The notes beneath the pieces were generated by a model. It did no database searches and had not been told where the DNA came from. It saw only the letters and a list, made by a program, of their open reading frames with translations. The position numbers and the translations under genes were made by a program. From Pyrinomonadaceae bacterium (GTDB lineage Bacteria; Acidobacteriota; Blastocatellia; Pyrinomonadales; Pyrinomonadaceae), in assembly GCA_036794905.1 (NCBI GenBank), contig DAIRFV010000003.1, forward strand, positions 3,866 to 67,865: 64,000 bases of DNA. The letters are read 5' to 3'. This document shows positions 2,887-46,223 of the stretch, one piece after another; within the stretch, counting starts at the first letter, position 1; each line of letters begins with the position of its first letter.

Positions 2887-2915
2887 AACTTCACCCCGTC
2901 AACCGGGCCGACGCC

Positions 2916-3527: not shown

Positions 3528-3579
3528 CGCGGTTCGGCGCTGCTGAGAATAGCTCTCCCGGTTCGACCCGTGTGGCGCG

Positions 3580-4599: not shown

Positions 4600-4753
4600 C
4601 GCTTTCGGTTGGACTTTGCGCGGCTCTGACAGAGGGAAACTTATGCGGCAACTTCAGAACGCCGGGAGTGGATTGCGGCCCGAGCCTTGGGTTGAATGAC
4701 GAGAGGCAGACTCGAAGGGAGGCCGAGCAGGTCACGAGGCACCGCGGAGATTA

Positions 4754-4794
4754 GAAGCGGTCTCATAAACATGTGCTGTTTATGAGACCGCTTC
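4754..4794. other. Perfect 17-18 bp stem-loop immediately downstream of the precursor gene (possible attenuator or stability hairpin)
   Basis: GAAGCGGTCTCATAAAC (4754-4770), loop atgtgct, GTTTATGAGACCGCTTC (4778-4794). No U-tract follows on either strand, so it is not a canonical intrinsic terminator. Confidence 0.6.
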
Positions 4795-4845
4795 CAGTAG
4801 CTTCTCATTCAGGTGCGTCTCGAAGAGGCTGACCGCCTGCCACGA

Positions 4846-5025
4846 TCAGCCGGTCTTCTGGTTGCCCGGGTTATCCATGCCCGTCTCCGGATTCACACTC
4901 CCGGCGGTGAGCGTCGCGATGCTTCCGTAAACGTGAAGCTCGGGCCGGTGGTACTCTTTTCCGGTGTTCGTCCCGCCCGGGGTCTGCGCGTAATCCTGTT
5001 TGGTCGGGTTCTCGTTTCGCGTCAT
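4846..5025 (-). CDS. Lasso peptide precursor (A), 59 aa; not in the supplied ORF track
   Basis: Hand translation: MTRNENPTKQDYAQTPGGTNTGKEYHRPELHVYGSIATLTAGSVNPETGMDNPGNQKTG*. The ATG overlaps the cyclase stop (ATGA at 5025-5022). A GGAGG lies 7 nt upstream (plus-strand cctcc, 5033-5037). The leader carries YxxPxLxxxG.....Tx at the spacing known for RRE-dependent lasso leaders. Confidence 0.75.
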   Translation of the reverse strand: MTRNENPTKQDYAQTPGGTNTGKEYHRPELHVYGSIATLTAGSVNPETGMDNPGNQKTG

Positions 5026-6878
5026 GCTGGCACCTCCAATGGAATCTCAGACTCGGTCAGCCTCGAACTCAGCAGCCAGTAGTTTAAACTAAGTGGCCGG
5101 ATTTTCAACCACAATTGCTCGGCCGTCTCCTCGGCAGAGGGCCGGCGGAGCGCCTCGACGTTGACATACTTGTGCAGCGCCGGGACGACCTCGGGGTTGG
5201 TCACCTCGTCCGCGCCGCCGTTTCGCAGCAACTCCAACACGGCGTCGCCCGCGAGCCGCGCCTTCCGGCGTGTCCTGATCGGCTCGGCCAACACGCCTTT
5301 CATCGCCTCGCGCAGAATCCCCTTGTGCGCGAACCAGGGCATCGGCGGGATCGCCAGCATGTACTCCACCAGCCGGCGGTCAAAAAACGGGTAACGCGGC
5401 TCGACCGGCACCCCCGTCGCGCCGGGGTCGGCACGCTCGAAGCCCTCCGTCCAGTAAATATCGCTCATCTGGTCGTACGCCTCCGGGCGGGCGTGGTGGA
5501 CGCGCGGCGGCGGCGCATTCAGTAGTTCCAGGCGCGCCGGCAGGCCGTAGGCGGTGGCGAAGCTGTGGTTCAGCCAGCCGGGGTAGAGGTGTTTACTTTC
5601 AACCCGCCTCCCGACCACATCCCTGAGCAGAGTGCGGAAGCCGAGCGCCGGGAGACGGCCGCAGGTGCGATAGTGCCGCAGCATGCACGCGAGCACGCCG
5701 CCCAGGCGCAGGCGCGTCATCCGCCTCTTGAAATCCGTGTATGAGAAGAGCTGCAAGGCGTCGCCGCCGTCACCGCTCAACATGGCGCGGCTGTGCGCGG
5801 CGACCCGCGTGAGGTGGTCTGTGATGAGGGCCGTTAACGGGAACCAGTTCGGCTCAGTCTGATGCGGCCCCGGCTCGTCCCAGCGCTCGAACAGCTTGTA
5901 GTCGTCGAGGACGTGGAACTCTATGGGGATGCCGATGCCCTCCGCCGCGGTCGCGGCGTACGGGCGCTCTACGTCCGGGATGAGTCTGTCGTAGACCATC
6001 GTGAACGCGCGCAGGTCATACGCCTCCGACCTCTCGGACAGCAGGGCCTTCGCCGTCGCCGCGATCGATGGCGAGTCGAGGCCGCCGCTCATGCTGACGG
6101 CGACCCGGCTGGCGCGCAGGCGGTCGCCCACGGCGGCGCGCCACAGCACCTTGAAGTGCTCGACGTAGTCGCGCCCCTCCCTGTAGCGGATGCACCCGTC
6201 CGCGGGCAGCGTCCAGTACCGGGAGACGCGCCTCCGCCCCTGCGACCAGGTCAGGCGGTGCGCGGGCGGCAGCCGCCTGATGTCGGCGAAGGTGGTGGTG
6301 TCCGGCTCCTGGTTGTAGCCGAACAGGAGGAAGTCGCCGACCGCCAGGTCGTTCAACTCGGCCGAGACCTGCGGGTGGCGGCGCAGGCAGTTCAGCGTGT
6401 TGCCGAAGACGAGGGCGCCCTCGACCTCCGCGTAGTAGAAAGGCTTGACGCCGAAGTGGTCGCGCGCGCAGAAGAGGCGGCGGCGGGGCGCGTCCCAGAT
6501 GGCGAAGGAGAAATCACCGAGCAGGTGCTCGACGCAGTCCTCGCCCCAGGCGGCATAGGCGTAGAGGATCAGGTCGGCGTCCGCGGCCTCATCCAGTCCC
6601 GCGAAGCCCGCGGCCTCCAACTTCCCCGTCAGCTCGGTTCGCGCGTCGAGGCGCGCGTCCGCCGTCACCCACCAGTTTCCGCCGAGGCCGCGCGGCTGCT
6701 CCTCGGCCTCCGACTCCCGGGTCGTGCGCAGCATCGCGTGTCCGAAGCCGACGGCCCCGTCGGCCCAGACGTTCTGCGCGTCCGGCCCGCGCCGCGCCAT
6801 GAACCCGGTCATCCGCCGGAGCAGGTCTCGATCCACGGGCGCGCCGTCCGTGTTGATGATGCCTACGATTCCGCTCAA
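5022..6878 (-). CDS. Lasso peptide cyclase (C), asparagine synthetase B-like
   Basis: The 618-aa ORF has an AsnB-like N-terminus (MSGIVGII...) and the PP-loop SMSGGLDSPSIAA. Its TTG start overlaps the B2 stop (TTGA). Confidence 0.9.
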   Translation of the reverse strand: MSGIVGIINTDGAPVDRDLLRRMTGFMARRGPDAQNVWADGAVGFGHAMLRTTRESEAEEQPRGLGGNWWVTADARLDARTELTGKLEAAGFAGLDEAADADLILYAYAAWGEDCVEHLLGDFSFAIWDAPRRRLFCARDHFGVKPFYYAEVEGALVFGNTLNCLRRHPQVSAELNDLAVGDFLLFGYNQEPDTTTFADIRRLPPAHRLTWSQGRRRVSRYWTLPADGCIRYREGRDYVEHFKVLWRAAVGDRLRASRVAVSMSGGLDSPSIAATAKALLSERSEAYDLRAFTMVYDRLIPDVERPYAATAAEGIGIPIEFHVLDDYKLFERWDEPGPHQTEPNWFPLTALITDHLTRVAAHSRAMLSGDGGDALQLFSYTDFKRRMTRLRLGGVLACMLRHYRTCGRLPALGFRTLLRDVVGRRVESKHLYPGWLNHSFATAYGLPARLELLNAPPPRVHHARPEAYDQMSDIYWTEGFERADPGATGVPVEPRYPFFDRRLVEYMLAIPPMPWFAHKGILREAMKGVLAEPIRTRRKARLAGDAVLELLRNGGADEVTNPEVVPALHKYVNVEALRRPSAEETAEQLWLKIRPLSLNYWLLSSRLTESEIPLEVPA

Positions 6879-7342
6879 CCTGACCTCGCCCCCGGAGAGT
6901 TGACGGGCCGCTCGAACACGGCGTAGCGGGCGCCGACGTCGCGGCTTTCATTCAGGGCGCGGCCGGAGAACTCGACCCACGCGTGTGCGCCGAAGCGCCC
7001 GCCCTCTTTCCGCGCCCCGATTCGCAATTCGCTCTCAAGCCCGTGCCGCCGCAGCAGCCACCAGAGGACGACCGACCGTTGCAGGCAGTTCGCGCGGTAG
7101 GGGCCGTGCGCCGCCGCGGCCGTGACGATTCGGCCGACGGCGCGGGCGAGCGACTCGGCGGAGCCGTCCGCCTTCGTCACGGATTTATTCACCGCCGGGG
7201 TCAGGCGGGCGAGGAGACGCTGGCACGGCCCGAGCCCCCTCAGCCGGATGAGAACTGCGACCGCCGGCAGCGCGACGGCCGCCTGCACCAGCAGCCGCCG
7301 CTCCGGCCGGGAGAGCCCGCGCAGTTGGCGCCACTTACTCAT
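6875..7342 (-). CDS. Lasso peptide leader protease (B2), transglutaminase-like cysteine protease
   Basis: The 155-aa ORF has ANCLQRSVVLWWLLRRHG (catalytic Cys context) and GAHAWVEFSG (His). This size and position are typical of a split B protein. Confidence 0.85.
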   Translation of the reverse strand: MSKWRQLRGLSRPERRLLVQAAVALPAVAVLIRLRGLGPCQRLLARLTPAVNKSVTKADGSAESLARAVGRIVTAAAAHGPYRANCLQRSVVLWWLLRRHGLESELRIGARKEGGRFGAHAWVEFSGRALNESRDVGARYAVFERPVNSPGARSG

Positions 7343-7619
7343 CGGCGACCTCGATCAGGCCGTGCCCGCTCAACGTTTCGATCAACTCGTAGAGGTCATG
7401 CCGGAGCCGCTCCGGTTCGACATCGAACTCGGCGAGTAACGCCTCGTAGGCGGGCTCCACCGTGCCGTTAGCGCAGAGCACTTCCCACATGCGCGTGCCG
7501 ACCGGGTCTAAACCGAAGTAGCGTTCGCTATCCAGGTTGAGGAGGACGCTCTCCTCCCCGGCCCTGGAGACCAGGACGCCGGGGGGCACCGAAACGCGAG
7601 ACGCTGGCGAGACTGCCAT
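7335..7619 (-). CDS. Lasso peptide RRE protein (B1), PqqD family
   Basis: The 94-aa ORF (SVLLNLDSERYFGLDPVGTRMWEVL...LYELIETLSGHGLIEV) shows a PqqD-like pattern. A GGGAG RBS lies upstream, and the stop overlaps the B2 start by 8 nt. Confidence 0.85.
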   Translation of the reverse strand: MAVSPASRVSVPPGVLVSRAGEESVLLNLDSERYFGLDPVGTRMWEVLCANGTVEPAYEALLAEFDVEPERLRHDLYELIETLSGHGLIEVADE

Positions 7620-33246: not shown

Positions 33247-35700
33247 TCAGTTCGGGAGCGACTGTTCGGTCGCCGCCTCCGCGTTGTAATAGGTCTGGGC
33301 GTAATAGCTGCGGTAGTAGTAAAAGTCGCTCTCACGCAGGTTGACGTTATTCAGGATGACGCCGAAGACCTTGGCCCCCACGTCCTGGAGGATTTGCTTC
33401 GCGCGGCGGGCGGCGGCGCGCGAGGTCTTGCCGCTGTTGACGACGAGGAGCACGCCGTCGACGAGCGTGGCGGCGAGCACGCCGTCGGTGAACGAGCCCA
33501 CGGGCGGCGTGTCGATGACGATGTGCGTGAACGTGCCTTCCAACGTCCTGACGAGAGAGCGCATCTGCTCCGAGCCGACCAGCTCGGCCGGGTTCGGCGG
33601 GACTGCGCCCGACGTGAGGATGTTCAGGCCCGTCCCCTCGTGCTGGTGAATCATCGAGAGGATTTCCGCCTCGCTCACGTCGTTCGAGAGGATGGTGCTC
33701 AGGCCGCGGCCGTTCCCCACGTCGAAGATCGAGTGGAGGCGCGGGCGGCGCATGTCGGCGTCGATGATGAGCACGTTCGCCCCGGTCTGCGCCAGCGAGA
33801 GGGCGGTGTTGACCGCGGTCGTCGTCTTCCCCTCCGACGGGGCGCTTGAGGTGACGAGGAGCGTCTTGGGCGCGTGGCCCGGCGTGGAGAGCAGCACGGA
33901 GGTTCGGAGGTGCCTGTAAGCCTCGGCGAGCGCCGAGCGCGTCTCCACGTTGACGAGCAGCTCGGGCGACTCCTGGCCGCGGCGGACGAGGGCGCGCGAG
34001 GGGAGCAGGCCCCGCTTCGCGAAGCCGCCGACCGCGGGGATGATGCCGATCGACGGCAGGCGCAGCCAGCGCTCCACGTCCTCGGTCGAGCGCACCGAGT
34101 CGTTCATGTACTCGAGGAAGACCGAGAGGACGACGGCCCCGGCGAGCGAGAGGGCGAGCACCATGGCGACGCCGCGCAGGCGCTGCGGGCCGACGGGGTG
34201 GTCGGGGACGACGGCGTAGTCGGCCACGAAGATGTTGTTGGGCGTGCCCGCCAGCACCACGTCGTTCTCCTTCGAACGCTGGAGCAGGCCGTCCAGGAGC
34301 TGCTTGTTGGTCTCGATCTCCTGCTGGATGATACGGTAGTTGATGGCCGCCTCGTTCTGCGTGAGCGTCTCGCCGCGCTGCCGCTCGAAGTCGGCGCGCA
34401 CCGCCCGCTCCCGCTCGAGCGCCTGGCGGTAGCGCGTTTCGAGGTTGAGGGTCACGACCGTGGTCGCGCGCGCCTTCGTCTCACTCGCCTGCTTTTCCAG
34501 CGTCGCTATCTGCTGGTTAATCTCCTTGACCTCGGGCCACTCCTCGGTGTTGTTGACGAGGAGTTGCGAGCGCCGCTCCTTGAGCGCCGCCAGCTTCGCC
34601 TCGATGTCCTCTTTGGACTTGCCGTCCTTCTCGGCCAGCGCGCTCGCGGCGCCGGGCGACTGCGCCGCGCGGTAGGCGGCCTCGGCGTCCTTGCGCTCGT
34701 TCTCGGCCTGGAGGAGTTGCTGGTTGAGCCCGGCCAGGCGCTCGACCACGGTGTTCTGGCTGCCGTCGAGCGAGAGAATCTGGTGCGTCTTCGCGTAGTT
34801 GACCAGGCGCTCTTCGTCGCTGCGAATGCCGGACTGGAGTTCGGCCACCCGCTTCTGTAGGAAGTCGCCGGAGGTCGCGTTGTTCTCGGTCTTCTTCTCC
34901 AGGTTCGCGAGGACGAAAGTGTCGGCGATGGCGTTGACGACCTTGGCCACGACCTGCGGGTCGCCGTGCGTGAACCTGATGTCGATGAGGCGCGTGTCCT
35001 TGTTGTAGGAGCTGGTGCGCGTCTCCCTGACGGGCTCGACCCTGAGGCCGGCCTGGAGGATGCCGACGAAGGGGGCGAGGCGTTTGGCCTCGGCCAGGTC
35101 TTCGCGGGCGGTGGCGGGGGCGACGGCGCCGGTGAGGGGCAACTGGTAGGGCTCCTTGCCGCCCTCCCCCTCGGCGGGCGAACTCCGGAGCCCGGCCATG
35201 CGGGAGAGGTTCTGCCAGACGGTGCGGTGCTGCCCCGCCGTGGGTCGCAGGAAGGCTTGGTTGTGTTCGAGGTCGAGCGTCTTGACCACCCGGCGCAGGA
35301 GCGCGGGGCTCGTCAGGTTCTGAAGCTGCGTGTTGAAGTAGGCGGGGTCGGTCGTCTGGCCGTTGTTGATGTAGACGGTGCCGTTCTTGACGGCGCCGGC
35401 GCCGGGGTTGCTCTCAAGGTCAACTTGCACGCGCGTCTGCGCGCTGTAGATGTCGGGCTTTTGCGCGATGTAGACGGCCGCGGCCGCCGTGGACAAGAGG
35501 GTGATCCCGACGATCAGCCAGACGTGCTTGCGCACGGCGCGGAGGTACTCGCGGAAGTGGTTCTCCTCCGCACCCTCCATGTCGCCGTAGCCGGCATAAC
35601 CGCCGTACGGAGGGAGCGCCGCCGGCGCCGCGGCGGACTTCGGCCTGTCGAGGTCTTGCGGCTCGGGGAGCGCAAAGGGCGGACCGTTGATTTCCTTCAT
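33247..35700 (-). CDS. Polysaccharide co-polymerase / tyrosine autokinase (Wzc/GumC/EpsB-like)
   Basis: The 817-aa ORF has an N-terminal Wzz-type chain-length domain with a long coiled coil, Walker A SSAPSEGKTTTAVN, IIDADMRRP, and a C-terminal Tyr cluster (DFYYYRSYYAQTYY). Confidence 0.9.
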   Translation of the reverse strand: MKEINGPPFALPEPQDLDRPKSAAAPAALPPYGGYAGYGDMEGAEENHFREYLRAVRKHVWLIVGITLLSTAAAAVYIAQKPDIYSAQTRVQVDLESNPGAGAVKNGTVYINNGQTTDPAYFNTQLQNLTSPALLRRVVKTLDLEHNQAFLRPTAGQHRTVWQNLSRMAGLRSSPAEGEGGKEPYQLPLTGAVAPATAREDLAEAKRLAPFVGILQAGLRVEPVRETRTSSYNKDTRLIDIRFTHGDPQVVAKVVNAIADTFVLANLEKKTENNATSGDFLQKRVAELQSGIRSDEERLVNYAKTHQILSLDGSQNTVVERLAGLNQQLLQAENERKDAEAAYRAAQSPGAASALAEKDGKSKEDIEAKLAALKERRSQLLVNNTEEWPEVKEINQQIATLEKQASETKARATTVVTLNLETRYRQALERERAVRADFERQRGETLTQNEAAINYRIIQQEIETNKQLLDGLLQRSKENDVVLAGTPNNIFVADYAVVPDHPVGPQRLRGVAMVLALSLAGAVVLSVFLEYMNDSVRSTEDVERWLRLPSIGIIPAVGGFAKRGLLPSRALVRRGQESPELLVNVETRSALAEAYRHLRTSVLLSTPGHAPKTLLVTSSAPSEGKTTTAVNTALSLAQTGANVLIIDADMRRPRLHSIFDVGNGRGLSTILSNDVSEAEILSMIHQHEGTGLNILTSGAVPPNPAELVGSEQMRSLVRTLEGTFTHIVIDTPPVGSFTDGVLAATLVDGVLLVVNSGKTSRAAARRAKQILQDVGAKVFGVILNNVNLRESDFYYYRSYYAQTYYNAEAATEQSLPN

Positions 35701-35806: not shown

Positions 35807-36826
35807 CTAACGGATGACCTGCACGGGGAGCTGGCCCACCGTGGGGACGACGGCGCCGACGAGGCTCCGCAGAATCCTCTTCCCGCCCGCGATGGGCACG
35901 TCGATGATGTCGTTCGGGAGGAGGGCGATGTCTTCGGCCTGGTGCTTATCGACCGCCTTCATGTCCACGAAGATTTCGCGGCTCTCGCCGTTGGCCTCCT
36001 GGCGGACGATGCGCACCCGCTCCTTGCGCGAGTCGGGCATGAAGCCGCCGACCATGGCGATGGCGCGCGAGACCGTCAGGCGGTCGTCCTTGAGCAGGAT
36101 CGGGCCGGGGCGCAGGACGTTGCCGACGACGTAAGCCTCCTTCGCCTCGGGCAGCGTGATGACGTCGCCGGGCTGGAGGTAGGGGTTCGCGCGCTCGTCG
36201 CCCTTCAGCGTCTCCTCCAGCTTGAAGGTCAGGAAGGACGGGGCGGAGGCGTCGTCAATAATCCCCGTCGCGGTCTGCGCGGCCGCCGCGGCGGGCCTGG
36301 CCGCGCACGCCCCGGGCGCGGGCATGCGCGCGATCTGGACGCGGCCCCCCGACTTCTCCGTCGCGCCGCCGGCGTAGAACTGGAGGAGTTCGAGGAGGCG
36401 GACGGGGCGGCGGAGCTGGAACTGGCCGGGGCGCGCGACCGCGCCGTTGATGGCGACGGGCTGCGAGTTGTACTCCTTCACCTTGACGACGACCTGCGGG
36501 TTGCGCTTGTACTTGGTGTAGAACCTGCGCAGGTGCTCTTGCAGCTCGTTGGTCGTCATCCCGGCGGCGCGCACCTCGTTCTGCTCCTCGTTCTGGACGG
36601 AGAGCAGCGGGATCATCCCGCACTCGTTGACCTCCATCGACTCGGCGGAGAACTGCGGGATGATGTCGGGGGCGGTGACGCGGATGGTCAGCACGTCGCG
36701 GGGGCCGATGCGGTACTGCTCGCCCGCGGGCTGCTGCTGCTGCGCCGGCGCGGCCAGGGCGGCGGCCGCCACGCAGAAGGCCGCGGCGAGAGTGCGGCGC
36801 GCTCTGACGAGGAGTTTGGATTTCAT
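35807..36826 (-). CDS. Polysaccharide export protein (Wza-like, with SLBB-type domains)
   Basis: A signal peptide (MKSKLLVRARRTLAAAFCVAAAALAAPAQQ), YRIGPRDVLTIRV (Poly_export motif) and LQPGDVITLPE / LPNDIIDVP repeats. Confidence 0.85.
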   Translation of the reverse strand: MKSKLLVRARRTLAAAFCVAAAALAAPAQQQQPAGEQYRIGPRDVLTIRVTAPDIIPQFSAESMEVNECGMIPLLSVQNEEQNEVRAAGMTTNELQEHLRRFYTKYKRNPQVVVKVKEYNSQPVAINGAVARPGQFQLRRPVRLLELLQFYAGGATEKSGGRVQIARMPAPGACAARPAAAAAQTATGIIDDASAPSFLTFKLEETLKGDERANPYLQPGDVITLPEAKEAYVVGNVLRPGPILLKDDRLTVSRAIAMVGGFMPDSRKERVRIVRQEANGESREIFVDMKAVDKHQAEDIALLPNDIIDVPIAGGKRILRSLVGAVVPTVGQLPVQVIR

Positions 36827-36844: not shown

Positions 36845-37126
36845 TCACTTCGCCGCGAGGCCCATGCGGCGCGAGAGCATGGCCTCGCGCAGGTGGTTGG
36901 GGCGCGAGAGGTTGAGGACGGTGTTGCCGAGGATGACGTTCAACTCCTCGGCCTCGCGGACGAAGGCGCCGGCGAGCGGCTTGTCGCCAACCTTGACGAC
37001 GACGCCGTCGCGCACCCACTGCCAGAACTGCGCCTGGGTAGTCCAGAACTCTTTGCGGTCGCGGCAGACGACGAGCGCCGTCCGCTTCGCCTTCCTCTTT
37101 TCGGCCTTCCTCTTCGCGCTGCTCAT
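36845..37126 (-). CDS. Small basic hypothetical protein (93 aa)
   Basis: A GC3-rich ORF (MSSAKRKAEKRKAKRTALVVCRDRKEFWTTQAQFWQWV...) located 18 nt upstream of the wza-like gene. I recognise no family. Confidence 0.5.
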   Translation of the reverse strand: MSSAKRKAEKRKAKRTALVVCRDRKEFWTTQAQFWQWVRDGVVVKVGDKPLAGAFVREAEELNVILGNTVLNLSRPNHLREAMLSRRMGLAAK

Positions 37127-37279: not shown

Positions 37280-37903
37280 TTAGACCACCTCGCGCGCCGC
37301 CGGCGCCTGCCCCTCCTCGTGCCTGAGGAGGCGCGAGATCAGCTCGCCGCGCCGCTTCACGCCGAACTTGACGAAGAGGTGGCGCATGTGGAACTTCACC
37401 GTCTGCTCGGTGACGAAGAGGCGCGCGCCGATCTCGGCGTTCGTCAGCCCCTCGGCGCAGCAGAGCGCGACCTGCGCCTCGCGCCGGCTCAGGTTGTAGC
37501 CGTTCACGACCCGCTCAAGCGCCGGGGCGAAGCCGGCGCCGTTCGCGTGGCTGCGAATCTCCTTCGGGTAGGGTTCGAGCCCCGCCGCGCGCCTGCGCTC
37601 GAAGACCTCCTGCGGGCCGTAGACCAGATAGAAGCTCCCGGCGCCGCTTTCGGCGCTGCCGTCGTCGCCGGCCGCGCGTTTGCAGTCGATGCTCAGCTTC
37701 GCCACCAGCCCGGCGCGCGCGCGCCTGAGCGTCGAGTAGCTGCCGAGGCCGGTCAGCCCGAGCAGTTGGCGGAGGCTGAAGCTCCCGACGCGCGACGCGA
37801 ACTCGCCGCCCGTGGCCGCGAGCAGGGACTCGTAGAGCAGGTGCTCGACGGGCGAGTGGCTGAGAGCCAGCAGTGCCATCGCCCCTTGGGGGTTGAGTTC
37901 CAT
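37280..37903 (-). CDS. LuxR-family transcriptional regulator (C-terminal HTH)
   Basis: LSRREAQVALCCAEGLTNAEIGARLFVTEQTVKFHMRHLFVKFGV is a canonical LuxR/GerE HTH. I do not recognise the N-terminal ~140 aa. Confidence 0.8.
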   Translation of the reverse strand: MELNPQGAMALLALSHSPVEHLLYESLLAATGGEFASRVGSFSLRQLLGLTGLGSYSTLRRARAGLVAKLSIDCKRAAGDDGSAESGAGSFYLVYGPQEVFERRRAAGLEPYPKEIRSHANGAGFAPALERVVNGYNLSRREAQVALCCAEGLTNAEIGARLFVTEQTVKFHMRHLFVKFGVKRRGELISRLLRHEEGQAPAAREVV

Positions 37904-38578
37904 CAGCTTTGAAAGGACTCCGGCCGAGGCAGAAAGTCGCGTGCGTCCGCTGCCGACAGCGTCCGGGGTCGCGTGCGTGCCCCGTGTGTCAAATTTCTCG
38001 GCGCCCGCCTGTGTAAGCTACTGAACGAAAACTCCGCTCGCCGGCTCCTCTCGCGGGGAACTGCTCCGTGGACGGCCGGGAGATAATGGCTTGAACTCTT
38101 GTTTCCTTAGGTTTAGCGCGACGGGAGTACGGCTTGAATCGGATGTCGGATGAGGTCGCCTGCACTTTTATTGAAACTGTTTGCGACAGGGTGTGTACCT
38201 GGTAGCGACTCTTGTACCGCCGATAAGGTGGCCGGCGTCGTCTGCCGGCGGCTCCTAAGTGCCCTTTGGTGTAGACACACCCTGCTTGAACGCCTCATCC
38301 TTGACCTTACAGGGTGTCAAAAAACCGCCCGCGAGTATAGATGTGGCGGGGACTTTTTGTCAGATTCAGCCGTTTGGATGGGTTTCTGAAGAAAGTTGTA
38401 GTTTGAAGAATCAGGGAAATTCCCTAGCCTGGTTTAAAACCCGAAGCCTAGAATGATAACCATGACTCTCAAAAAACCCGGCAATTTTAGCTAAGACGGT
38501 ACTGTTGTCAAGTGAATAATACTAATGTGGGACATTTTTCCATCTCCACCCGTAAAACTTACACGCCACAGGCAGCAA

Positions 38579-38611
38579 CGCCCGGCGTGAGAAGCCGGGC
38601 GTCAACTTTTC
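38579..38611 (+). terminator. Intrinsic-terminator-like hairpin inside the AT-richer intergenic island
   Basis: CGCCCGGC (38579-38586), loop gtgagaa, GCCGGGCG (38594-38601), followed by TCAACTTTTCT. Confidence 0.45.
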
Positions 38612-38696
38612 TGCACACGGGGGTGGCCGTCACAGTCCACAAAACACATCACCCGAAAGTCTTGTAAGCACGGATTATACGATTTACTGCCGGGCC

Positions 38697-38978
38697 GTGG
38701 AACTCGTCGAAGCGTTCCTGTCCGACGTGAGAGAGCGCCGCCGGTCGTTACTCGAAGCCTATGAGCGGCGCGACCTCGAAAGGCTGAAGCGCGAGTCGCA
38801 CGCGTTCAAAGGGGGCGCCGGGCTGTTCGGCGCCGCGCGGCTGTCGAACATCTGCGCCCGGCTCATAGACCTCGCCGCGCGCGGCGACGCGCCCGCGCTG
38901 CTTCAGGCGCTCGAAGCGATGGACGCGGAACTGGGACAGGTCACCTCGAAGCTGGAACAGTGGACGCTCGACGCGTAA
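38697..38978 (+). CDS. Histidine phosphotransfer (Hpt) domain protein, orphan
   Basis: The 93-aa ORF has a GTG start and ESHAFKGGAGLFGAARL, the HxxKG phospho-His motif of Hpt domains. Confidence 0.7.
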   Translation: MELVEAFLSDVRERRRSLLEAYERRDLERLKRESHAFKGGAGLFGAARLSNICARLIDLAARGDAPALLQALEAMDAELGQVTSKLEQWTLDA

Positions 38979-38991
38979 CGTTTCGCCCGCC

Positions 38992-40086
38992 TCATCTGTA
39001 TGCCTTTTCTCTCAGTCGCCGGAGCGGGCGCTTGAGGAAGGCGGCGGACTGGGAGACGTAGAACTTGAGCTGACGCGGGAGCCTCGCCCTCTCGTCGAAG
39101 GGGAGGCGGAGGCCGACGTGGGCGCGGACGGGGTCGGGCCAGCGGCCGACGAGCGCGGGCAGCGCGCGCAAGGGGTTGCGCAGGGAGACGGACATCAACT
39201 CGCGCGGCACGTGGTCGGCCGTCGTGGGGCGCTCCCACTGCCGCAGCACTTCCGCCAGGAGCCAGGAGGGCGCGCGCGCCTCGCTCACAGATTCTGGTAA
39301 TCCACCGCGCGTCGCGCCGAGCAGACGCCGCGCGAGGTCGAGGACGCAGCCGACCCAGTTGCGCCTGAGCGCGTCACAGCCCGCCGCCGCGTCCCGGTCG
39401 AAGCCCGCGGGCGCCGTCTCCAGCGCGGCGGCCACGTCGCAGAGCCAGAGCGGGCGGTATGCGCTGTGCCTCAGCAGGTGCAGGCAGAGGAAGCGCAACT
39501 GGTCTTCGTGTCCGGGGACGCGAATCCGCGAGCCGTTCAGCTCGAAGAGTTGCGAGCGCGCGTAGACGCCGTCCCAGCCGTCGCGGCCGAGCAGTGCGGA
39601 GTCGTCGTGCTTCAGGTCGATGAGCGCTTTGCCCTTCGGCCCCGGCCCCCAGACGGCGCGGCGCGCCGCCCCGTACTCTTCGGGGCGCACGCAGAGGTCT
39701 ATGTCGCCGACGGGGCGCAGGCCGCGCTCGGCGTAGAGGCGCGCCGCGCCCAGACCTTTCAGCAGGATGGGCTCGACGCCCGCCGCGCGCAGGCGCGAGA
39801 AGACGTGCTCGACCTCGCGCTCCTGAAGTGCGGACTGTAGGGACTGTGTCTGGTAAGCCTCGCGGAGTTCTTCGCCCGCCCGCGTGTCGCGCAGGCGCGA
39901 GCCGCGCACGCGCCACCATGCGAGCGCGGCCGTCCCCGAGCCTTTAAGTTGAGGGACGACCTGTCCGAGTTCTTCGGCGGAGAGGTTCGGGGCGGGGGGC
40001 GTCCGCCTCCACGAGCCCGCGAGGAGTTCGGCGATGATCGAGGGCGTGCTTCCGCGCCGCGCGGCCGGCGAAAGTTCGGGGCTCAC
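38992..40086 (-). CDS. Nucleotidyltransferase family protein (PF14907-like, uncharacterised NTase)
   Basis: PILLKGLGAARLYAERGLRPVGDIDLCVRPEEY is the hallmark of this family. I trimmed the start to the GTG at 40086 (VSPELSPAARRG...), 11 nt downstream of the upstream gene's stop. The track's longer version overlaps that gene by 262 nt. Confidence 0.7.
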   Translation of the reverse strand: MSPELSPAARRGSTPSIIAELLAGSWRRTPPAPNLSAEELGQVVPQLKGSGTAALAWWRVRGSRLRDTRAGEELREAYQTQSLQSALQEREVEHVFSRLRAAGVEPILLKGLGAARLYAERGLRPVGDIDLCVRPEEYGAARRAVWGPGPKGKALIDLKHDDSALLGRDGWDGVYARSQLFELNGSRIRVPGHEDQLRFLCLHLLRHSAYRPLWLCDVAAALETAPAGFDRDAAAGCDALRRNWVGCVLDLARRLLGATRGGLPESVSEARAPSWLLAEVLRQWERPTTADHVPRELMSVSLRNPLRALPALVGRWPDPVRAHVGLRLPFDERARLPRQLKFYVSQSAAFLKRPLRRLREKAYR

Positions 40087-40097
40087 TTCGGGCCTTG

Positions 40098-40589
40098 TTA
40101 GACGCCGCACTCCGCCTCGGGCAGGCACACGCCGCCCGAGCAGCACATCGGCGGGGGGCAGTTCTGTTCGTTGCACGGACTCTGCGCCTCGGCCGCGGTC
40201 GGCGAGACGACGGAGGTGATGAGCGGGAGCGAGACGGCCGCCGCGACGCCCAGACGGCGGAGCATCTTCCGGCGCGAGATGAGGCTCGTCGCCGCCGCCG
40301 CGCGCGCCGCGCCCGTCGATAGCAGGTCGAACTCGGCCAACTGTTCGAGCGCGAGCCACACGACCTCCTCCGAGACGTGCGCGGACATCTGCGCGCCGAC
40401 CCTCTCGGCTATCCGCGCGACCGAAGTCCGGCCGTCGCAGCTCTTCCAGACCAGCGCCGCCGTCCGATTCAGACAGTGCGCGCGGTGACCCTCCTCGTCG
40501 TAGACGAGCACTTCTTCGGCCAGCTCGCGCACGAGCAGCCTCGCCTCCCGCGCCGCGGGCAGATATTGATCGGGCATGTGTTCAGGCAT
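40098..40589 (-). CDS. PqqD/RRE-like domain protein fused to an internal signal-peptide-like segment and a 6-Cys C-terminal tail
   Basis: Residues ~20-90 (VLVYDEEGHRAHCLNRTAALVWKSCDGRTSVARIAERV...VVWLALEQLAEFDLL) are PqqD-like. They are followed by SRRKMLRRLGVAAAVSLPLITSVVSPTAAEA and then QSPCNEQNCPPPMCCSGGVCLPEAECGV. A strong GGAGG lies 7 nt upstream of the ATG (plus-strand cctcc, 40597-40601). Confidence 0.7.
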   Translation of the reverse strand: MPEHMPDQYLPAAREARLLVRELAEEVLVYDEEGHRAHCLNRTAALVWKSCDGRTSVARIAERVGAQMSAHVSEEVVWLALEQLAEFDLLSTGAARAAAATSLISRRKMLRRLGVAAAVSLPLITSVVSPTAAEAQSPCNEQNCPPPMCCSGGVCLPEAECGV

Positions 40590-40621
40590 GTCCTTCCCTC
40601 CTCAAGAAGACTCGCTGACGA

Positions 40622-41467
40622 TTAATTTCGGGCGGATGATTCTGCGGCCCCCACGCCGCTCAGGATGGACGCCGCGGCGTGTGACGCTTCGCCGCGCGCG
40701 CCGGCCAGTATGACGGTCCGCGCGGCGACCTCCGACAGCGCGGCCAGCGCGCGCGCCGGTGCCCTGCGCGCGGAGACGGTGTTGGCTAACATCTCAAGCA
40801 CGCCCTCCCCCGGACTGAGGCGGCGCGGCCGAAAACTCCGCCCGCGCTCGTAGCGGCTGACGACCACCAGCCCGACCGGCAGCGCTCTCCTCCCGGCGCG
40901 CCCGCCGAACTCCTCGACCGTGCGGCGCGTCTGCGCGAGCCCCGCGCCCTCGCGCACCGCCAGCGGCCGCGCGTAAGGGTGAACACGCCCCTCTGCGTCG
41001 AGCACGGCGTACTCGTCCGAGTAATACACCGCGCCCGCGCGCACGAGCTCCGCGACGAGCGTCGTCTTGCCGCTCAGGCTGCGGCCGGGAATCAGGATGG
41101 CGCGCCCGCGCCAGCCGACCACGCCCGCGTGGACGAAGACGCGGCGCGCCGCGCGCTCGGCCACGTAGATTTGCAGGTCTGATTCGAGCATCCCCAACAC
41201 CGCACCCGCTTCGGGCGCGCGCCCCGCGAGCCGCGCGCCCGAGTAGAGCAGGTGGAAGCGTCGCCCACGACCTTCAACCTCCCCCCCGCCCGAGACGAGC
41301 GAGTAGAGCTTCGAGACCTCCGGCGACGCGGCGGGCCTCCAACCGGGCGGCAGACGCTCCGCCACGTGCGCGAGCGACGCCGCGTCGCTCATGCGGACGC
41401 CGACCTTCACGCCGTAGGCCGTCAGCGCAATCCCTGCCGCCCACCCGAGGCGGTCGAGCTTACGCAT
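40622..41467 (-). CDS. HPr kinase-related kinase (second copy)
   Basis: VFVHAGVVGWRGRAILIPGRSLSGKTTLVAELVRAG is an HprK C-terminal-domain-like P-loop, followed by YSDEYAVLD. The protein is 281 aa. Confidence 0.75.
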   Translation of the reverse strand: MRKLDRLGWAAGIALTAYGVKVGVRMSDAASLAHVAERLPPGWRPAASPEVSKLYSLVSGGGEVEGRGRRFHLLYSGARLAGRAPEAGAVLGMLESDLQIYVAERAARRVFVHAGVVGWRGRAILIPGRSLSGKTTLVAELVRAGAVYYSDEYAVLDAEGRVHPYARPLAVREGAGLAQTRRTVEEFGGRAGRRALPVGLVVVSRYERGRSFRPRRLSPGEGVLEMLANTVSARRAPARALAALSEVAARTVILAGARGEASHAAASILSGVGAAESSARN

Positions 41468-41547: not shown

Positions 41548-44500
41548 TCACGGCGCGCCCTCCACCACGACGACGAACTGGTACGCGCCGCCCCTCATCA
41601 CCCCGAGCAGGAACTCCACGTCCGCGCTCTGCCCCGCCGCGAGCGGCTGCGGCAGCGTCAGCGACCCGCTCAACACGAGCCCCGTGTTGACGCCCCCGCC
41701 CGCAGCTTGCGCGGGCGGCGTCTCGACGGTCGTCGCCACGAGCCCCGTCCCGCCGAGCCCCGCCAACTGCGCGTCGAGCACACGCACCTCGGCCTGGTTG
41801 GCGAAGACCTGTTTGTTGTTGTAGGTCGTCACCTGCACCACGCGGAACCGCAGTCGGTTGAGCGACTGCCCCGTGTTGTTCGTGAACCGCCGCCGCAGCG
41901 ACAGAGTCCCGAGCGAGCCGTTCGTCACCGGCGTCAGACTCCGCACGCTCGACAGGATGCCGGGCGGGGTGGTGACGCCGAACCCGCTGTTGCGCGTGAC
42001 GGGCCCCGAGCCGTTCTCCGGCCCCGGCGCGCCGAGCGTGGCCGTGCCCGAGAGGAGTTGCGCCGGGTTGGTGGCGACGAGCGTGAAGTCCGCGCGGTTG
42101 TCGCCCGTGTCGGACGGCAGGCTCGAAGGCTGGTTGCGCACGAAGCTGTGCTGCACGTCCTCGGCCACGCCGAACAGGGGGAGCCCCGACCCTTCCCTGT
42201 ACGGCGTCGCCACGCCGTCGAAGCCGACCGCGTCGAAGACGTTCGCCGGCGTGAACTGCGCGCGGTCGGCCGTCTTGAAGAGCGCGAGCCCCGTGTAGTC
42301 TGCCTCGCCGCCCGAGTAGGCCGGCGGGTTGTAGGTCTGGTCGGGCGCGGCTAAACCTGAGAGGCTGTAGCCCGTGCCCGCCGCGAGGTAGTGGCCGCGC
42401 GCGGGGATGACCGTGCCCGCGGGGATGACGAAGCGCGGGATGTTCGACGTGGAGCCTTGCAGGTCAACGAGCGCCCAGCCGCACGCGGCCGCCGGCCCCG
42501 CCGTGATGACTTGCAGCGCGCAGGTCACGGCGTTGGCGTCCGTGACGACGATGTCCGCGTCCGTGTTGTTGTAAATCTCGACGAACTCGTCGGTCTCCCC
42601 GGCGGTCGGCGGCGCGCCCGTGCCCCCTCCGCCGTCGTCGTCGTCGGTGGGAGGCCGCGGGGCGGACGGGCCGTCCTCTTCTTCGACGGCGCTCTTCGCG
42701 GGCCGCCTGAGCTTCCGGCCGGACGGGAGCGTGACGACGGGCGTGTCGAAGTCGGCCGGCTCGTTGTTACCCGTGCCCGGCCCGCGCAGGCGGAACTCGC
42801 TGATGAGGACGGTGCCCGCGGCGACGGGCGCGGTGATGGTGGCGACGCCCGTCCCGTCCGCGACGGTCGCGTTCGAGGGGCTCGACAGGTTCAGGCCGAA
42901 GTCCTCGGGCGTGTCGGAGAGGGCGTCGGCCTTGACGACGACGGCGATTGTCTTCGAGGTCTCGCCCGGGTCGAAGATGACGGTGCCGCCGGCCGAAGTG
43001 TAGTCGCCCGGCTGCGTGGCCGTGCCGTCGGCCGTCGCGAAGTTGACCGTGACGGCCTGCGCCGAGGCGGCCGAGAGCGTGACGGGGAAGACGGCGTGGC
43101 TCACCCCCGACGAGGGCTCGGCCACGCTTAAGTCGCCGACCGAGATTGCGGGGCCGCCGAAGACCGACGCGGGCTCGGCGAGCGTCCAGTCGGAGAAGGA
43201 CGAGACGCCATTGAGCGTGGCCGTGTGGTTCGTCGTGTCGAGCGCGTCGGGCGTGAACTGCGTGAAGGCGCCGCCGTCGTACTTGAAGATTTTGTAGTTC
43301 GCCTCGGCGCCCGCCACGTCCCCGGCGAGGTAGTGGAAGGTCAGGTCACTCGTCACGCCCGCGCCCGCGAGCGTCCAGTAGCGCGAGAGCGCGTTCGCGC
43401 CCGCGACGTTCGGGTGCTTCGCCTGCGTGGCCTTGACGGAGAGCGAGCCCGCGCCGGCCGTCACGCTCGCGTCCACGGGCGTGTAGCCGTTGGCCGTGCC
43501 CACGTCGAAGGTGAAGCTGCCCGCGCCGTCGAAGCTCTTCCGCTCCGTCCCGATGATGTAGCCGCTGCTGCGCGTGACCGAGCCGGCGGCGCCGATGTTG
43601 AGCGTGTTGCCGCCGGCCGTCGTGACGTTGTTCGCGCCGAGGGCGAGCGTGCCGTTGACGGTCGCGTCGGCGGAGAGCGTCACGGCGGCGTTGACGTTGA
43701 CGTTGACGCCGACGCCGAAGCCCAGCGTGCCGCCCGAGGCGGAGGTGATTGTCTTCGCGCCGTTGAAGCCGAACGTGCCGGTGCCGGCGCCGGAGGTGAT
43801 TGTGCGCGCGCCGCCCGAGACGAGGAGGTCGCCGCCGTTGCCGTTGAGCGCGAGCGTGCGGCCGTTGAGATCGACGCCGCCCGAGTTGAGCAGTCGCAGC
43901 GCGGCGCCCGTGGTGGCGTTGACGGCGAGGTCTGTGACGAAGCCCGCGCCCGCGTCGGGCGTGAGCGAGCCCGCGGCCTTGTCTACGACGAGGTACGCGA
44001 AGCTCTCGGTGCCGCCGCCCTGAACGCTGACAATCTGGTTCGTGGTGCCGTTGAAGGTGACGGCGCGGCCGTTGGTCGTGAAGGTGGCGGCGGCGGCGCG
44101 CGTCCAGTTGTGGCCGACCTCCAGGTCGCCGCCGCTCAAGGTCGAGAGGACGAGCGAGCCGCTGTTCGAGACGGAGCCGAGGACTTTGAGCGGCCGCGTG
44201 AGCGGGGAGGGGCCGGCGAGGCTCATCGTCGAGCCCGCGTCGATGGCGAGGTCGCCCGCCATCTGGAAGGCTTGCGCGGTCGAGCCGTTGGGGAGGTCGA
44301 GCGTCGTGTTGTTGGCGAGCCGGACGTGGTAGGGGTAGCCCGGCCCCGAGGTCGCGCCCGGCAGCCACTCGCCGTTGCGCCCGTAGCTCCCGCCCGTGTT
44401 GTACTTCAGCGTCGAGGTCGCGGCGTAGGAGGGCGAGCCGGAGAAGAAGCCGCCCTGGTCGATGCGGAGCGTGCCGTTAATCTGCGCCTGACCGTTGTTG

Positions 44501-45930
44501 CCGACGGCGCCGGCCGTGGCCAGCAGACCGTCGGAGACGACGGTGAGGTCTGCGCCCGTGCCGTCGGCGACGTTGAAGGTGACGCCGCCGTTGACCAGGA
44601 GGACGCCGCCCGCGCCGACCGTCAACTGGTCGGCTTCGACCGAGGCCGTGACGTTGACGGTGTGGCCGTTCCGGATGGCGATGGCGTCGGCCGAGGACGA
44701 AGGCGTCCCGGCGGCGTCCACCCAGTTGGTGCCGTCCGTCGAACTCTCCCAGGTCGAGGCCGAATTCCAGTTGCCGCTCTGCTTGCTGCGGTAACTGACG
44801 GGCGGGGGGAAGACGACGAGGTAGAGTTCGCCGCCGAGGATGCTGAGCGTGGCGCCGTGACCGGCGGCGACGCCGTCGCCGCCGACCGTGACGGACGAGG
44901 GGGCCGTCCCCGAGACGCCTCCGCCGGTGCCCCTGGAGACGAGCAGGTAATTGCCCGCGGCGAGCGGGATGCCGCCGCGGGAGACGGTGACGGTGACGGG
45001 GTTGCCGCCGGCTAAGACGAGCGTGCCCGTGCCGGCGGTGGTGAGCGGGGGGACGGTGCCGTTGTAAGAGTGGAACTGGAGCGGGCTGTTAGACGCGAGG
45101 CTCAGGTTCTTCGCACCCAGCGCGAGGGTGCCGGGAGCGGCCGCGCCGCTGGCGCTGAGCGTCTGTCCGCTGGCGAGGGCGTAGGAGGCGGGCGTGACGC
45201 CCGAAACGTCGAAGGCCGCGCCGGCCGCGACGACGATGCTGGGCGAGTTGTTAATCGTGCCCGGGCCGCTGAGCGCGAGCGTCCCGGCGCTGATGGTCGT
45301 CTCGCCGGAGTAGGTGTTCGCGCCGCTCAGCGTCAGAAAGCCGCCGCCCGAACCGGCCTTCGTGAGTTTCCTGTTCACGCCGCTGATGCTGCTGCTGATC
45401 GTGACTGCGCCCGTGCCGTCCACGTTGATGATGTTATCGGTGACGTTGCCGAGGGCGACGCCCATCGTGCCGTTTAGTGCAGCCTGAAGGGTAAGGTTGC
45501 CGGTTCCGGAGTGCCGCAGAATAACATTCGCGACGGAGTTCACCGACGCCCCGTTAAGCTGAAGAGTGCCGGCGATGGCGGAACTGTCCCCGAGGCTGCG
45601 GGCATTCGTGCCGGTAAAGTTAATGGCTCCCAGGTAGAGAGTGTTACCGGCGAAATTCATGTTAATGCCAATCGCCGGATTCGCGGCGGTCGAGGGGATG
45701 GTGGCAACGTCCGCGTTGGTAGTTGCGGACTGAGACCCGGGAAACGCCGTGTCGCCAACCCAGTTGGTGACAGTGAACCACGCCGTACCGCCGCCGGTCG
45801 CACCACCGTCCCACGTCTGGTCAGCCGCATGGGCGACGTAGACGTAGGTGCCCACAAGTGCGAGGGCGACGAGCGCGGCGGCGAAGGTTAAGAGGCGGCG
45901 GGTGGCGCGGGTGAAGACGGGGGTCTGCAT
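41548..45930 (-). CDS. Giant secreted surface protein with PATR beta-strand repeats, a Calx-beta domain and a lamin-tail (LTD) domain
   Basis: A signal/TM segment ([27 protein letters not shown]) and an autotransporter-associated repeat ([24 protein letters not shown]). Calx-beta is marked by [38 protein letters not shown], and LTD by [10 protein letters not shown]...[16 protein letters not shown]. The start is set to the ATG at 45930. Confidence 0.85.
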   Translation of the reverse strand: [1460 protein letters not shown]

Positions 45931-46223
45931 CTGAGGCTCTCCGGTGCTGCTGCAACGCCCGGCGGGCGCGCGGCCGAGTCCCGCGCCCCGCACAGGTCGA
46001 AGACGAACGGGCCGGCCGTTCGCGTTTCGAGACTACAATTTTGGTGGCAGCATGAGGGGACGCCTGCGGCGTCGGGCACATGGATTGGGGCGCAGAGTAA
46101 CACCGCGGCGGCACGCGGTCAACCCTCGAAGCCTTCAGCGGCACGGGGCGCCCGGCGCGGCGGAGAGTAAGGGTGGGGCCGCGAGGTAAAAGTTCTTCAC
46201 GTTCCGGTCACGTCGAGTTCAGC

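Follow-up and report, generated by a model that had tools for sequence, protein, structure and literature searches.

The window analyzed here is a stretch of 64,000 nt from a Pyrinomonadaceae bacterium of the Acidobacteriota (assembly GCA_036794905.1, contig DAIRFV010000003.1), and our subject is a trio of co-directional genes on its minus strand. In order, they encode an HprK-like kinase, a 163-residue protein with a PqqD-type RiPP recognition element (RRE; RiPPs are peptides made on ribosomes and modified after translation), and a nucleotidyltransferase of family PF14907, with gaps of 32 nt and 11 nt between them (Table 1). A check of open reading frames (ORFs) returned all three with the coordinates, shared direction, and spacing given in the original prediction for this DNA, and a GGAGG Shine-Dalgarno sequence stands ahead of the ATG of the middle gene. 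No gene for a cyclase, a protease, or a radical-SAM enzyme lies beside the trio among the window's ORFs and their Pfam annotations; that absence was also part of the prediction, and the annotated flanks bear it out. The parts of the module are all of known kinds (RRE, HprK-like kinase, PF14907, signal peptide), and the middle protein would join the first of them to a segment that resembles its own substrate.

The PqqD domain of the 163-residue protein is recognized by Pfam (PF05402 on residues 26-70, 31.8 bits against a cutoff of 23.4) and carries a signature, HCLNRTAALVWKSCDG, that is conserved in alignments of its homologs. An AlphaFold2 model, built from a 72-sequence alignment and with a mean pLDDT (predicted local distance difference test) of 80, predicts a winged-helix fold for it with pLDDT above 90: strands at residues 18-22, 27-31, and 36-40, then helices at 42-50, 57-68, and 74-86. 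The top Foldseek matches of this model in the PDB are to TbiB1 with leader (5v1u; target TM-score 0.72-0.76), and further RRE matches include PqqD (5sxy), a lasso B1 protein with leader (6jx3), ThcOx, TigE, and CteB. Identity as a genuine PqqD was rejected; the protein scores 18.2 bits against a cutoff of 46 for TIGR03859, and there are no pqq genes in the flanks.

A single-sequence search with this protein finds 1030 homologs, the best 120 of which are 119-177 residues long, with more than 85% of the query covered in nearly all. A profile search of 1.84 billion representatives of 50%-identity clusters yields 8230 matches at E<=1e-3 and 873 at E<=1e-30. The best 150 of these 873 (127-323 residues) all show the PqqD domain, an RR motif, and a hydrophobic Ala/Pro-rich stretch leading to an AxA site, with a Cys-rich tail next in nearly all. 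Since the same architecture recurs in all 150 of the best representatives, in a family of 1030 homologs and 873 cluster representatives, it is far beyond chance. Species-representative genomes place members in Pyrinomonadaceae, Vicinamibacteria, other Acidobacteriota, Gemmatimonadota, and Chloroflexi. Their NCBI names go no further than "PqqD family protein" and "PqqD family peptide modification chaperone".

The SRRKMLRR stretch, the hydrophobic stretch, the AEA site, and the Cys-rich tail that had been pointed out behind the domain are all present in the translation of the window's gene. Residues 105-135 contain every sequence feature of the twin-arginine translocation (Tat) type, namely S/T-R-R-x-hydrophobic-hydrophobic-K/R, a moderately hydrophobic h-region, and an AxA c-region. 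Counted over the 150 best representatives, RR is present in 150, S or T directly precedes it in 123, R or K occupies +5 in 128 with hydrophobic residues at +3 and +4, and G follows the twin-arginine motif in 119; the two flanking Pro residues occur in 105 each, and A stands at -1 of the putative cleavage site in 113. The family consensus reads h-[S/T]-R-R-x-h-h-[R/K]-[K/R]-h-G-h-A-A-A-V-A-L-P-h-V-[T/S]-S-I-V-A-P-T-A-A-Q-A. Translation from an internal start right in front of SRR would give a conventional N-terminal Tat precursor; the idea was considered because the residue at -2 is L, V, I, or M, and was dropped because Ile is common at that position, including in this window.

The tail that follows is constrained among the Pyrinomonadaceae orthologs, where Q136, S137, C139, C144, C150, and C155 are invariant. 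Across the wider family the tails are Cys-rich but hypervariable, with lengths of 24-186 residues in the representatives. The number of Cys residues is even in 142 of 148 representatives (96%), with six in 71, eight in 27, and ten in 14, and the commonest framework is C-C-CC-C-C with the spacing C-x4-6-C-x4-6-CC-x3-4-C-x4-6-C. Such even numbers and the prevalence of six fit peptides that would be oxidized outside the cytoplasm. Pfam searches for toxin families on tail-only segments gave resemblances to conotoxin, inhibitor cystine knot (ICK), and Dickkopf families below threshold. The original prediction had allowed for a PqqD domain followed by random sequence; with invariant residues in the orthologs and Cys-rich, even-numbered tails family-wide, conservation of the tail is what the alignments return.

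Tandem arrays of PqqD-tail genes occur at six loci, with two or three genes each and with tails that differ (L050 at 1951-5112, L047, L054 at 5279-6483, L080, L084, and L099). Truncated copies and copies broken by stop codons are among them, a sign that precursor paralogs may undergo birth-and-death turnover. Judged by sequence, the combination of a conserved leader, a hypervariable core, and tandem paralogs is the pattern of peptide (RiPP) precursors; paralogs with distinct tails are also a trait of bacteriocin precursors.

Modeling suggests that the leader segment folds back on the RRE of the same protein. Outside the RRE, AlphaFold2 places helices at 106-113 and 115-120 over the RR segment, a β-strand at 124-128 (ITSVV), and a β-hairpin in the tail at 148-151/154-157. 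When the tail is removed and residues 1-135 are modeled, strand 124-128 stays, the pLDDT of the block rises to about 90, and the predicted TM-score (pTM) is 0.81. Because the strand survives deletion of the tail, and because the PqqD sheet is the sole other β-structure left to partner it, strand 124-128 (in the LPLITSVVSP motif) most likely pairs with that sheet. The stretch had been described as a hydrophobic helix; it is hydrophobic, but part of it (residues 124-128) is predicted as strand.

Covariation was measured as mutual information with average product correction on 225 sequences at <=80% identity, against a permutation null that ignores phylogeny; the measure is blind to whether a contact lies in cis or between two copies. 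The strongest long-range pair in residues 1-135 joins E75 in α3 to R112 in the RR segment (0.27 against a null maximum of 0.145), and the next pairs, L79-L121, E75-L121, R36-S129, and H38-S126, lie at about the null maximum. In published RRE-leader complexes β3 and α3 are the elements that hold the leader. The predicted strand and the covariation with β3 and α3 fit a leader bound in cis.

Within the PqqD domain itself, H38, C39, and C51 are near-invariant, joined among orthologs by H35 (H-R-A-H-C-L-N ... C-D-G; residues 35-51, at 40437-40487 on the minus strand). To our knowledge, residues of this type are not typical of PqqD or RRE proteins. They might make up a metal site or a redox pair, and H38 is the residue that covaries, weakly, with S126 of the predicted docked strand.

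The genes on either side are frequent companions of the PqqD-tail gene. In ten loci of Pyrinomonadaceae type (L001-L010), a giant PATR/Calx-beta protein, the kinase, the PqqD-tail protein, and the nucleotidyltransferase are encoded in that order. The three smaller genes are kept together on Gemmatimonadota and Chloroflexi contigs, and the kinase and PqqD-tail genes in Vicinamibacteria. Linkage was counted over 99 non-redundant loci, 80 of them metagenomic. A kinase homolog lies directly upstream on the same strand in 37 of the 59 loci with at least 1 kb of upstream sequence, and a nucleotidyltransferase homolog directly downstream in 32 of the 49 with at least 1.2 kb downstream. Both flanks are readable in 37 loci, of which 23 have both genes, seven the nucleotidyltransferase only, three the kinase only, and four neither; co-occurrence of the kinase, PqqD, and PF14907 families, a check suggested in the original prediction, is therefore frequent (23/37) but not obligatory (4/37). 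At one locus (L107) the trio is intact amid arginine-biosynthesis and ABC-transporter genes, and it can therefore move as a unit. No lasso or radical-SAM genes were found in any annotated homologous locus.

The kinase is named by remote homology. Against the NCBIfam model TIGR04352 (HprK_rel_A) it gives a local match with E 1.2e-14, confined to profile positions 78-160, and membership in HprK-related kinase A was rejected at 54.1 bits against a cutoff of 200. Its HprK-type core reads VHAGVVGW-GRAILIPGRSLSGKTTLVAELVRAGAVYYSDEY, and 15 kinase homologs share as invariant residues H113, G128-x-S-x-SGK-T136 (GRSLSGKT), and S150-D151-E152. A Pfam scan gave the kinase no significant match. In particular, that scan returned no ScmC match for the window kinase or for four homologs, one of which has a weak precomputed PF27840 (ScmC) match on record. 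A single-sequence search against PDB sequences reached HprK at E of about 0.8, and a profile search with the kinase, like a search with the nucleotidyltransferase, was uninformative against the same sequences. It is reasonable, from these alignments, to read "HprK-like kinase" as a remote-homology call that stops short of family membership. Kinase homologs number at least 6745 by reciprocal search and are mostly named "hypothetical protein"; loci L106 and L107 came from this search.

The nucleotidyltransferase matches PF14907 (92.1 bits against a cutoff of 31.2), and the Asp pair of its GDIDL motif lies within PVGDIDLCV. We take PsmN of the pseudomycoidin system to be a member of the same family (NTP_transf_5). 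In that system, PsmK phosphorylates a Ser of the linear precursor, and PsmN, an uncharacterized nucleoside triphosphate (NTP) transferase, is needed for the hexose on phospho-Ser (PMC6993621).

Table 1. Coordinates of the trio, of the parts of its middle protein, and of other features of the window.
Feature	Position in window	Strand	Remarks
HprK-like P-loop kinase	40622..41467	-	281 aa; ORF; without signal peptide, presumed cytoplasmic
163-aa RRE-signal-Cys-rich precursor-like protein	40098..40589	-	ORF; end coordinate includes stop codon
PqqD/RRE domain (residues 11-90)	40320..40559	-	PF05402 above gathering cutoff; AlphaFold2 pLDDT above 90; Foldseek
Conserved "leader" segment (residues 105-135)	40185..40277	-	SRRKMLRRLG, h-region VAAAVSLPLITSVV, c-region SPTAAEA (AxA site)
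28-aa Cys-rich putative core QSPCNEQNCPPPMCCSGGVCLPEAECGV	40101..40184	-	C-x4-C-x4-CC-x4-C-x5-C; C-C-CC-C-C framework
PF14907 (NTP_transf_5) nucleotidyltransferase-fold enzyme	38992..40086	-	364 aa from GTG start
1481-aa secreted repeat protein (PATR, Calx-beta)	41548..45993	-	Pfam matches; 80 nt upstream of trio
EpsA-like LuxR regulator	37280-37903	-	exopolysaccharide locus
Poly_export	35807-36826	-	exopolysaccharide locus
Wzz/tyrosine kinase	33247-35700	-	exopolysaccharide locus
Lasso B1 (RRE)	7335-7619	-	
Lasso B2	6875-7342	-	
Lasso cyclase C	5022-6878	-	
Lasso precursor candidate	4846-5025	-	
Lasso-cluster HprK-like kinase	3580-4599	-	
2OG-Fe(II) oxygenase	2916-3692	-	
PRMT-like methyltransferase	1717-2886	-	

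An exopolysaccharide locus of some 30 kb (7747-37903, minus strand) has the trio at its upstream edge; it encodes a GDP-mannose dehydratase, a Glycos_transf_4 protein, at least seven GT1/GT2/GT4 glycosyltransferases, and several methyltransferases; scores in this locus resemble PEP-CTERM-type families yet stay below their cutoffs. Downstream of the trio come a convergent Hpt gene and then the LuxR/EpsA-like regulator, a conserved 93-residue ORF, Poly_export, and the Wzz/tyrosine-kinase gene. The 93-residue ORF (36845-37126, minus strand) has a lysine-rich N-terminus, belongs to no Pfam or NCBIfam family, and is 83-89% identical across Pyrinomonadaceae loci (L001, L004, L009). The intergenic region 38000-38700 falls inside the window's lowest-GC 2-kb interval (0.646). 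Its only strong sigma-70-like site, on the minus strand at 38511-38484 (11 of 12 matches), is a candidate promoter for the LuxR/exopolysaccharide operon that lies downstream, and two terminator-like hairpins near 38563-38602 may mark a limit of the transcription unit of the trio. Upstream, it is uncertain whether the 1481-residue PATR/Calx-beta protein belongs to the module, because its neighborhood with the trio is conserved in Pyrinomonadaceae only.

This placement is not peculiar to the window. The module is found repeatedly in or beside exopolysaccharide loci with Glycos_transf_4, Wzy_C, TPR, Poly_export, and Wzz, along with two conserved proteins of about 650 and 210 residues that have no Pfam family. 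In one large lineage (L020-L022, L103, L105, L106) these two always lie between Wzy_C and TPR, just upstream of the module, and both may be part of the same system. Outside Pyrinomonadaceae, too, there are giant secreted neighbors, with Peptidase_C25, LTD, CarboxypepD_reg, and DUF4214 domains (L020-L022, L103, L105, L014). Recurrence beside exopolysaccharide loci and giant secreted proteins, C25 peptidases included, suggests a role in the cell envelope or matrix for the presumed peptide. A functional link of the tails with the C25 peptidases is conceivable, since knottin-type peptides are classic protease inhibitors.

A complete lasso-peptide cluster is also present, about 35 kb from the trio (3580-7619, minus strand; 1717-7619 with tailoring genes). 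Its B1, B2, and C genes, a precursor candidate, and a kinase were all found. The presence of the kinase and the lack of a PF14907 gene among the annotated ORFs agree with the original prediction. The 2OG-Fe(II) oxygenase and the PRMT-like methyltransferase may be unusual tailoring enzymes for the lasso peptide.

We propose, with moderate confidence, that the 163-residue protein is a RiPP-like precursor with a built-in RRE. The kinase and nucleotidyltransferase would tailor it while it is still in the cytoplasm, and export followed by cleavage would then yield a disulfide-rich peptide. The original prediction of an undescribed module, in which an RRE is joined to a segment resembling its own substrate, gains support from the conservation of the tail, the predicted docking in cis, the tandem paralogs, and the failure of the module to travel with lasso genes in the annotated homologous loci. 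As we picture it, the precursor would have three parts: the RRE (11-90), a segment (105-135) serving at once as a twin-arginine-type signal and as the recognition sequence of the RRE, and a core (136-163). The RRE would fold, LPLITSVVSP would dock as an extra β-strand in the β3/α3 cleft, and the RR-bearing helix would touch α3, as the models predict. The RRE-leader unit would then present the precursor to the HprK-like kinase for phosphorylation of a Ser or Thr, with S137 (at +2 of AxA) and T125/S126 as candidates, and the PF14907 enzyme may elaborate the phosphate, by analogy with PsmK and PsmN, where phosphate is followed by hexose. Once let go, segment 105-135 could serve as an internal signal for Tat or for general secretion (Sec), leaving the N-terminus cytoplasmic and the C-terminus exported. 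Signal peptidase might cut after A133-E-A135 to free QSPC...CGV, whose six Cys residues would form three disulfides outside the cytoplasm, as the Cys statistics of the family suggest.

Several observations weigh against this proposal. Its export, cleavage, and modification steps are all argued by analogy, and the kinase that would act in it is a remote homolog without a significant Pfam match and with a score too low for the NCBIfam cutoff. The signal is internal, beginning at residue 105 behind a folded domain and not at the N-terminus; Pfam TAT_signal is not significant, with E 3.3 in one of six segments scanned, and it could be RRE binding, not translocation, that keeps the basic and hydrophobic residues conserved. 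The docking is read from DSSP and pLDDT output, not from coordinates, and a single covarying pair stands clearly above the phylogeny-blind null. The tail ends in ...ECGV and homologs have no conserved Ser at their C-termini, whereas lasso kinases modify a C-terminal Ser, and retention of the candidate sites (T125/S126, or S/T at +2) is uncorrelated with presence of the kinase. Finally, in about one-third of loci the kinase or nucleotidyltransferase is not next to the PqqD-tail gene, and at one locus (L106, 7001-9082) a kinase gene is followed directly by a PF14907 gene with no PqqD gene between them. The kinase homolog there is longer than usual (304 residues), in a Glycos_transf_4/Wzy_C/TPR context, and orphan PqqD-tail genes exist at L104, L095, and L098. 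Because of that locus and these orphans, the kinase and nucleotidyltransferase may serve precursors encoded elsewhere in the genome.

A bolder version of the precursor proposal, which we think unlikely to hold in full, gives the docking a part in the control of export. The RRE would hold its own Tat signal as an intramolecular export checkpoint until a phosphate-linked glycosyl or nucleotidyl group is installed, whereupon export and the signal-peptidase cut would release a member of a new class of ribosomal peptide natural products.

Among the alternatives, the one that survives best, itself doubtful, is an uncleaved type II single-pass membrane adaptor, whose cytoplasmic RRE would recruit the kinase and nucleotidyltransferase to the membrane for the modification of other exported substrates. 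These would be the giant secreted proteins or exopolysaccharide intermediates whose genes adjoin the module in many lineages, although the trio also occurs away from both (L107, L002), and the Cys-rich tail would be a small disulfide-stabilized ectodomain. Positive charges on the N-terminal side of the hydrophobic segment suit such a topology, as does the L106 pair of enzymes without an adjacent PqqD-tail gene. The hydrophobic stretch is nevertheless short, bracketed by Pro, and predicted as a strand on the RRE instead of a membrane helix; an anchor has no need of the AxA site whose -1 Ala is conserved in 113 of 150 representatives, and hypervariable, tandemly duplicated tails look like products rather than anchors.

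A soluble cytoplasmic protein that regulates the kinase or serves it as a chaperone partner is distinctly improbable. Here the segment would simply pack on the PqqD domain, much as AlphaFold2 packs residues 106-128 there with no free hydrophobic helix and as the covariation agrees, and the tail would be a zinc or iron knuckle. The near-invariant H38, C39, and C51 are in keeping with a metal protein, and even Cys counts could suit Cys4 sites, yet six Cys is the commonest number and the spacing lacks the CxxC pairs of zinc ribbons. Nor would this account for tails that vary from 24 to 186 residues and resemble conotoxin and ICK families, below threshold, or for an order of RR, hydrophobic stretch, and P-x-A-x-A that is that of a cleavable signal.

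The suggestion, also made in the original prediction, that the trio works in trans on the lasso peptide encoded some 35 kb away draws on the established role of kinase/nucleotidyltransferase pairs in lasso tailoring and on the lack of an annotated PF14907 gene in a cluster that has a kinase, but it can scarcely hold, because the two kinases of the window are only distantly related (BLASTP E 0.12; hhalign 71% probability, E 3.6e-5 over 146 columns), annotated homologous loci have no Asn-synthase or transglutaminase (lasso) genes within 6-10 kb, the lasso cluster is self-sufficient with its own B1 RRE, B2, C, precursor candidate, and kinase, and the conserved signal and Cys-rich tail of the PqqD protein would be left unexplained.

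The precursor proposal also has to be set beside systems already described. Phosphorylated and phospho-glycosylated lasso peptides (paeninodin with PadeK, pseudomycoidin with PsmK and PsmN) likewise co-encode an HprK-like kinase, a nucleotidyltransferase, and a PqqD-type RRE. They differ in having an Asn-synthase-like cyclase and a B2 protease, neither of which is found beside the trio or in annotated homologous loci, and in having the RRE as a separate B1 protein, where here it is part of the putative substrate. The Ser that is phosphorylated in them is C-terminal, a residue missing from the tail of the 163-residue protein, and release depends on a leader protease and an ABC exporter, in place of which the present protein has a putative secretion-type signal and AxA site. 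The trio kinase and the lasso kinase share an HprK-like P-loop core, with an acidic metal-binding pair in the trio kinase, and the kinship is remote only.

The SynChlorMet cassette pairs an HprK-like ScmC with a PqqD-like ScmD, and some kinase homologs of the present module have a weak precomputed PF27840 match. ScmD membership of the 163-residue protein was nonetheless rejected (20.1 bits against a cutoff of 100), and the radical-SAM/SPASM genes of that cassette were not found in any annotated locus. Precursors of the NHLP and Nif11 types have a domain-like conserved leader and a short, hypervariable, often Cys-rich core, and often occur as multiple paralogs, as in the PqqD-tail family. Their leaders derive from nitrile-hydratase or Nif11 proteins and are cut at a Gly-Gly site by a peptidase-containing ABC exporter; the leader of the PqqD-tail family is instead an RRE fold followed by what resembles a twin-arginine/AxA signal. 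The Tat chaperones TorD, DmsD, and NapD are cytoplasmic proteins that bind a twin-arginine signal and delay export until the passenger is ready. Their folds are unrelated, they work in trans, and their clients are redox enzymes with cofactors, whereas in the predicted RRE-signal contact an equivalent role would fall to a binding domain fused in cis, upstream of the signal. Eukaryotic ICK peptides (knottins, conotoxins) share the C-C-CC-C-C framework, a length of 25-40 residues, and a conserved pre-region before a hypervariable mature part; there is no demonstrable homology to the bacterial tails, which have an RRE ahead of the signal.

Bufferins are RiPP precursors with a general secretion signal that are cut at a signal-peptidase site and are periplasmic, and they too contain Cys, are larger than typical RiPPs, and belong to a widespread family that genome context brought to light (PMC11626156). 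They show that RiPP precursors can use the general secretion signal, and they differ from the present protein in an N-terminal signal with no preceding domain, in their MNIO and DUF2063 enzymes, and in the lack of a fused RRE. In every RiPP system known to us, the RRE either stands alone as a protein or is attached to an enzyme. Literature searches on PqqD/RRE-precursor fusions, Tat-signal RiPPs, PF14907, and PqqD with HPr kinase returned nothing or lasso-peptide papers only, and no curated Pfam or NCBIfam model scores above threshold for the kinase or for the whole 163-residue architecture. No description was found in the searchable literature of a presumed substrate that carries its RRE in the same chain and has the recognition sequence inside a secretion-type signal.

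If the proposal is true, with RRE and substrate fused in front of a general-secretion signal, the search for precursors would have to change, as genome-mining tools seek short ORFs and PqqD-tail genes are annotated merely as "PqqD family protein". The family is large (873 clusters at 50% identity and E<=1e-30, and thousands at 90% identity) and concentrated in poorly cultured soil phyla. In its tails, bacteria would have a large stock of disulfide-rich mini-proteins with knottin-like frameworks, attractive as scaffolds. The pairing of an HprK-like kinase with PF14907, whose chemistry is only partly understood, would gain a second, non-lasso context, and the predicted docking would be an example of a chaperone-like domain that binds a signal peptide in cis. 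Should the export-checkpoint version hold, thousands of modified knottin-like peptides with links to exopolysaccharide and secreted-protease loci would exist in the Acidobacteriota, Gemmatimonadota, and Chloroflexi of soil. That the module stands again and again beside exopolysaccharide genes and giant secreted proteins hints, for the Acidobacteriota, at a function in the biofilm matrix or the cell envelope.

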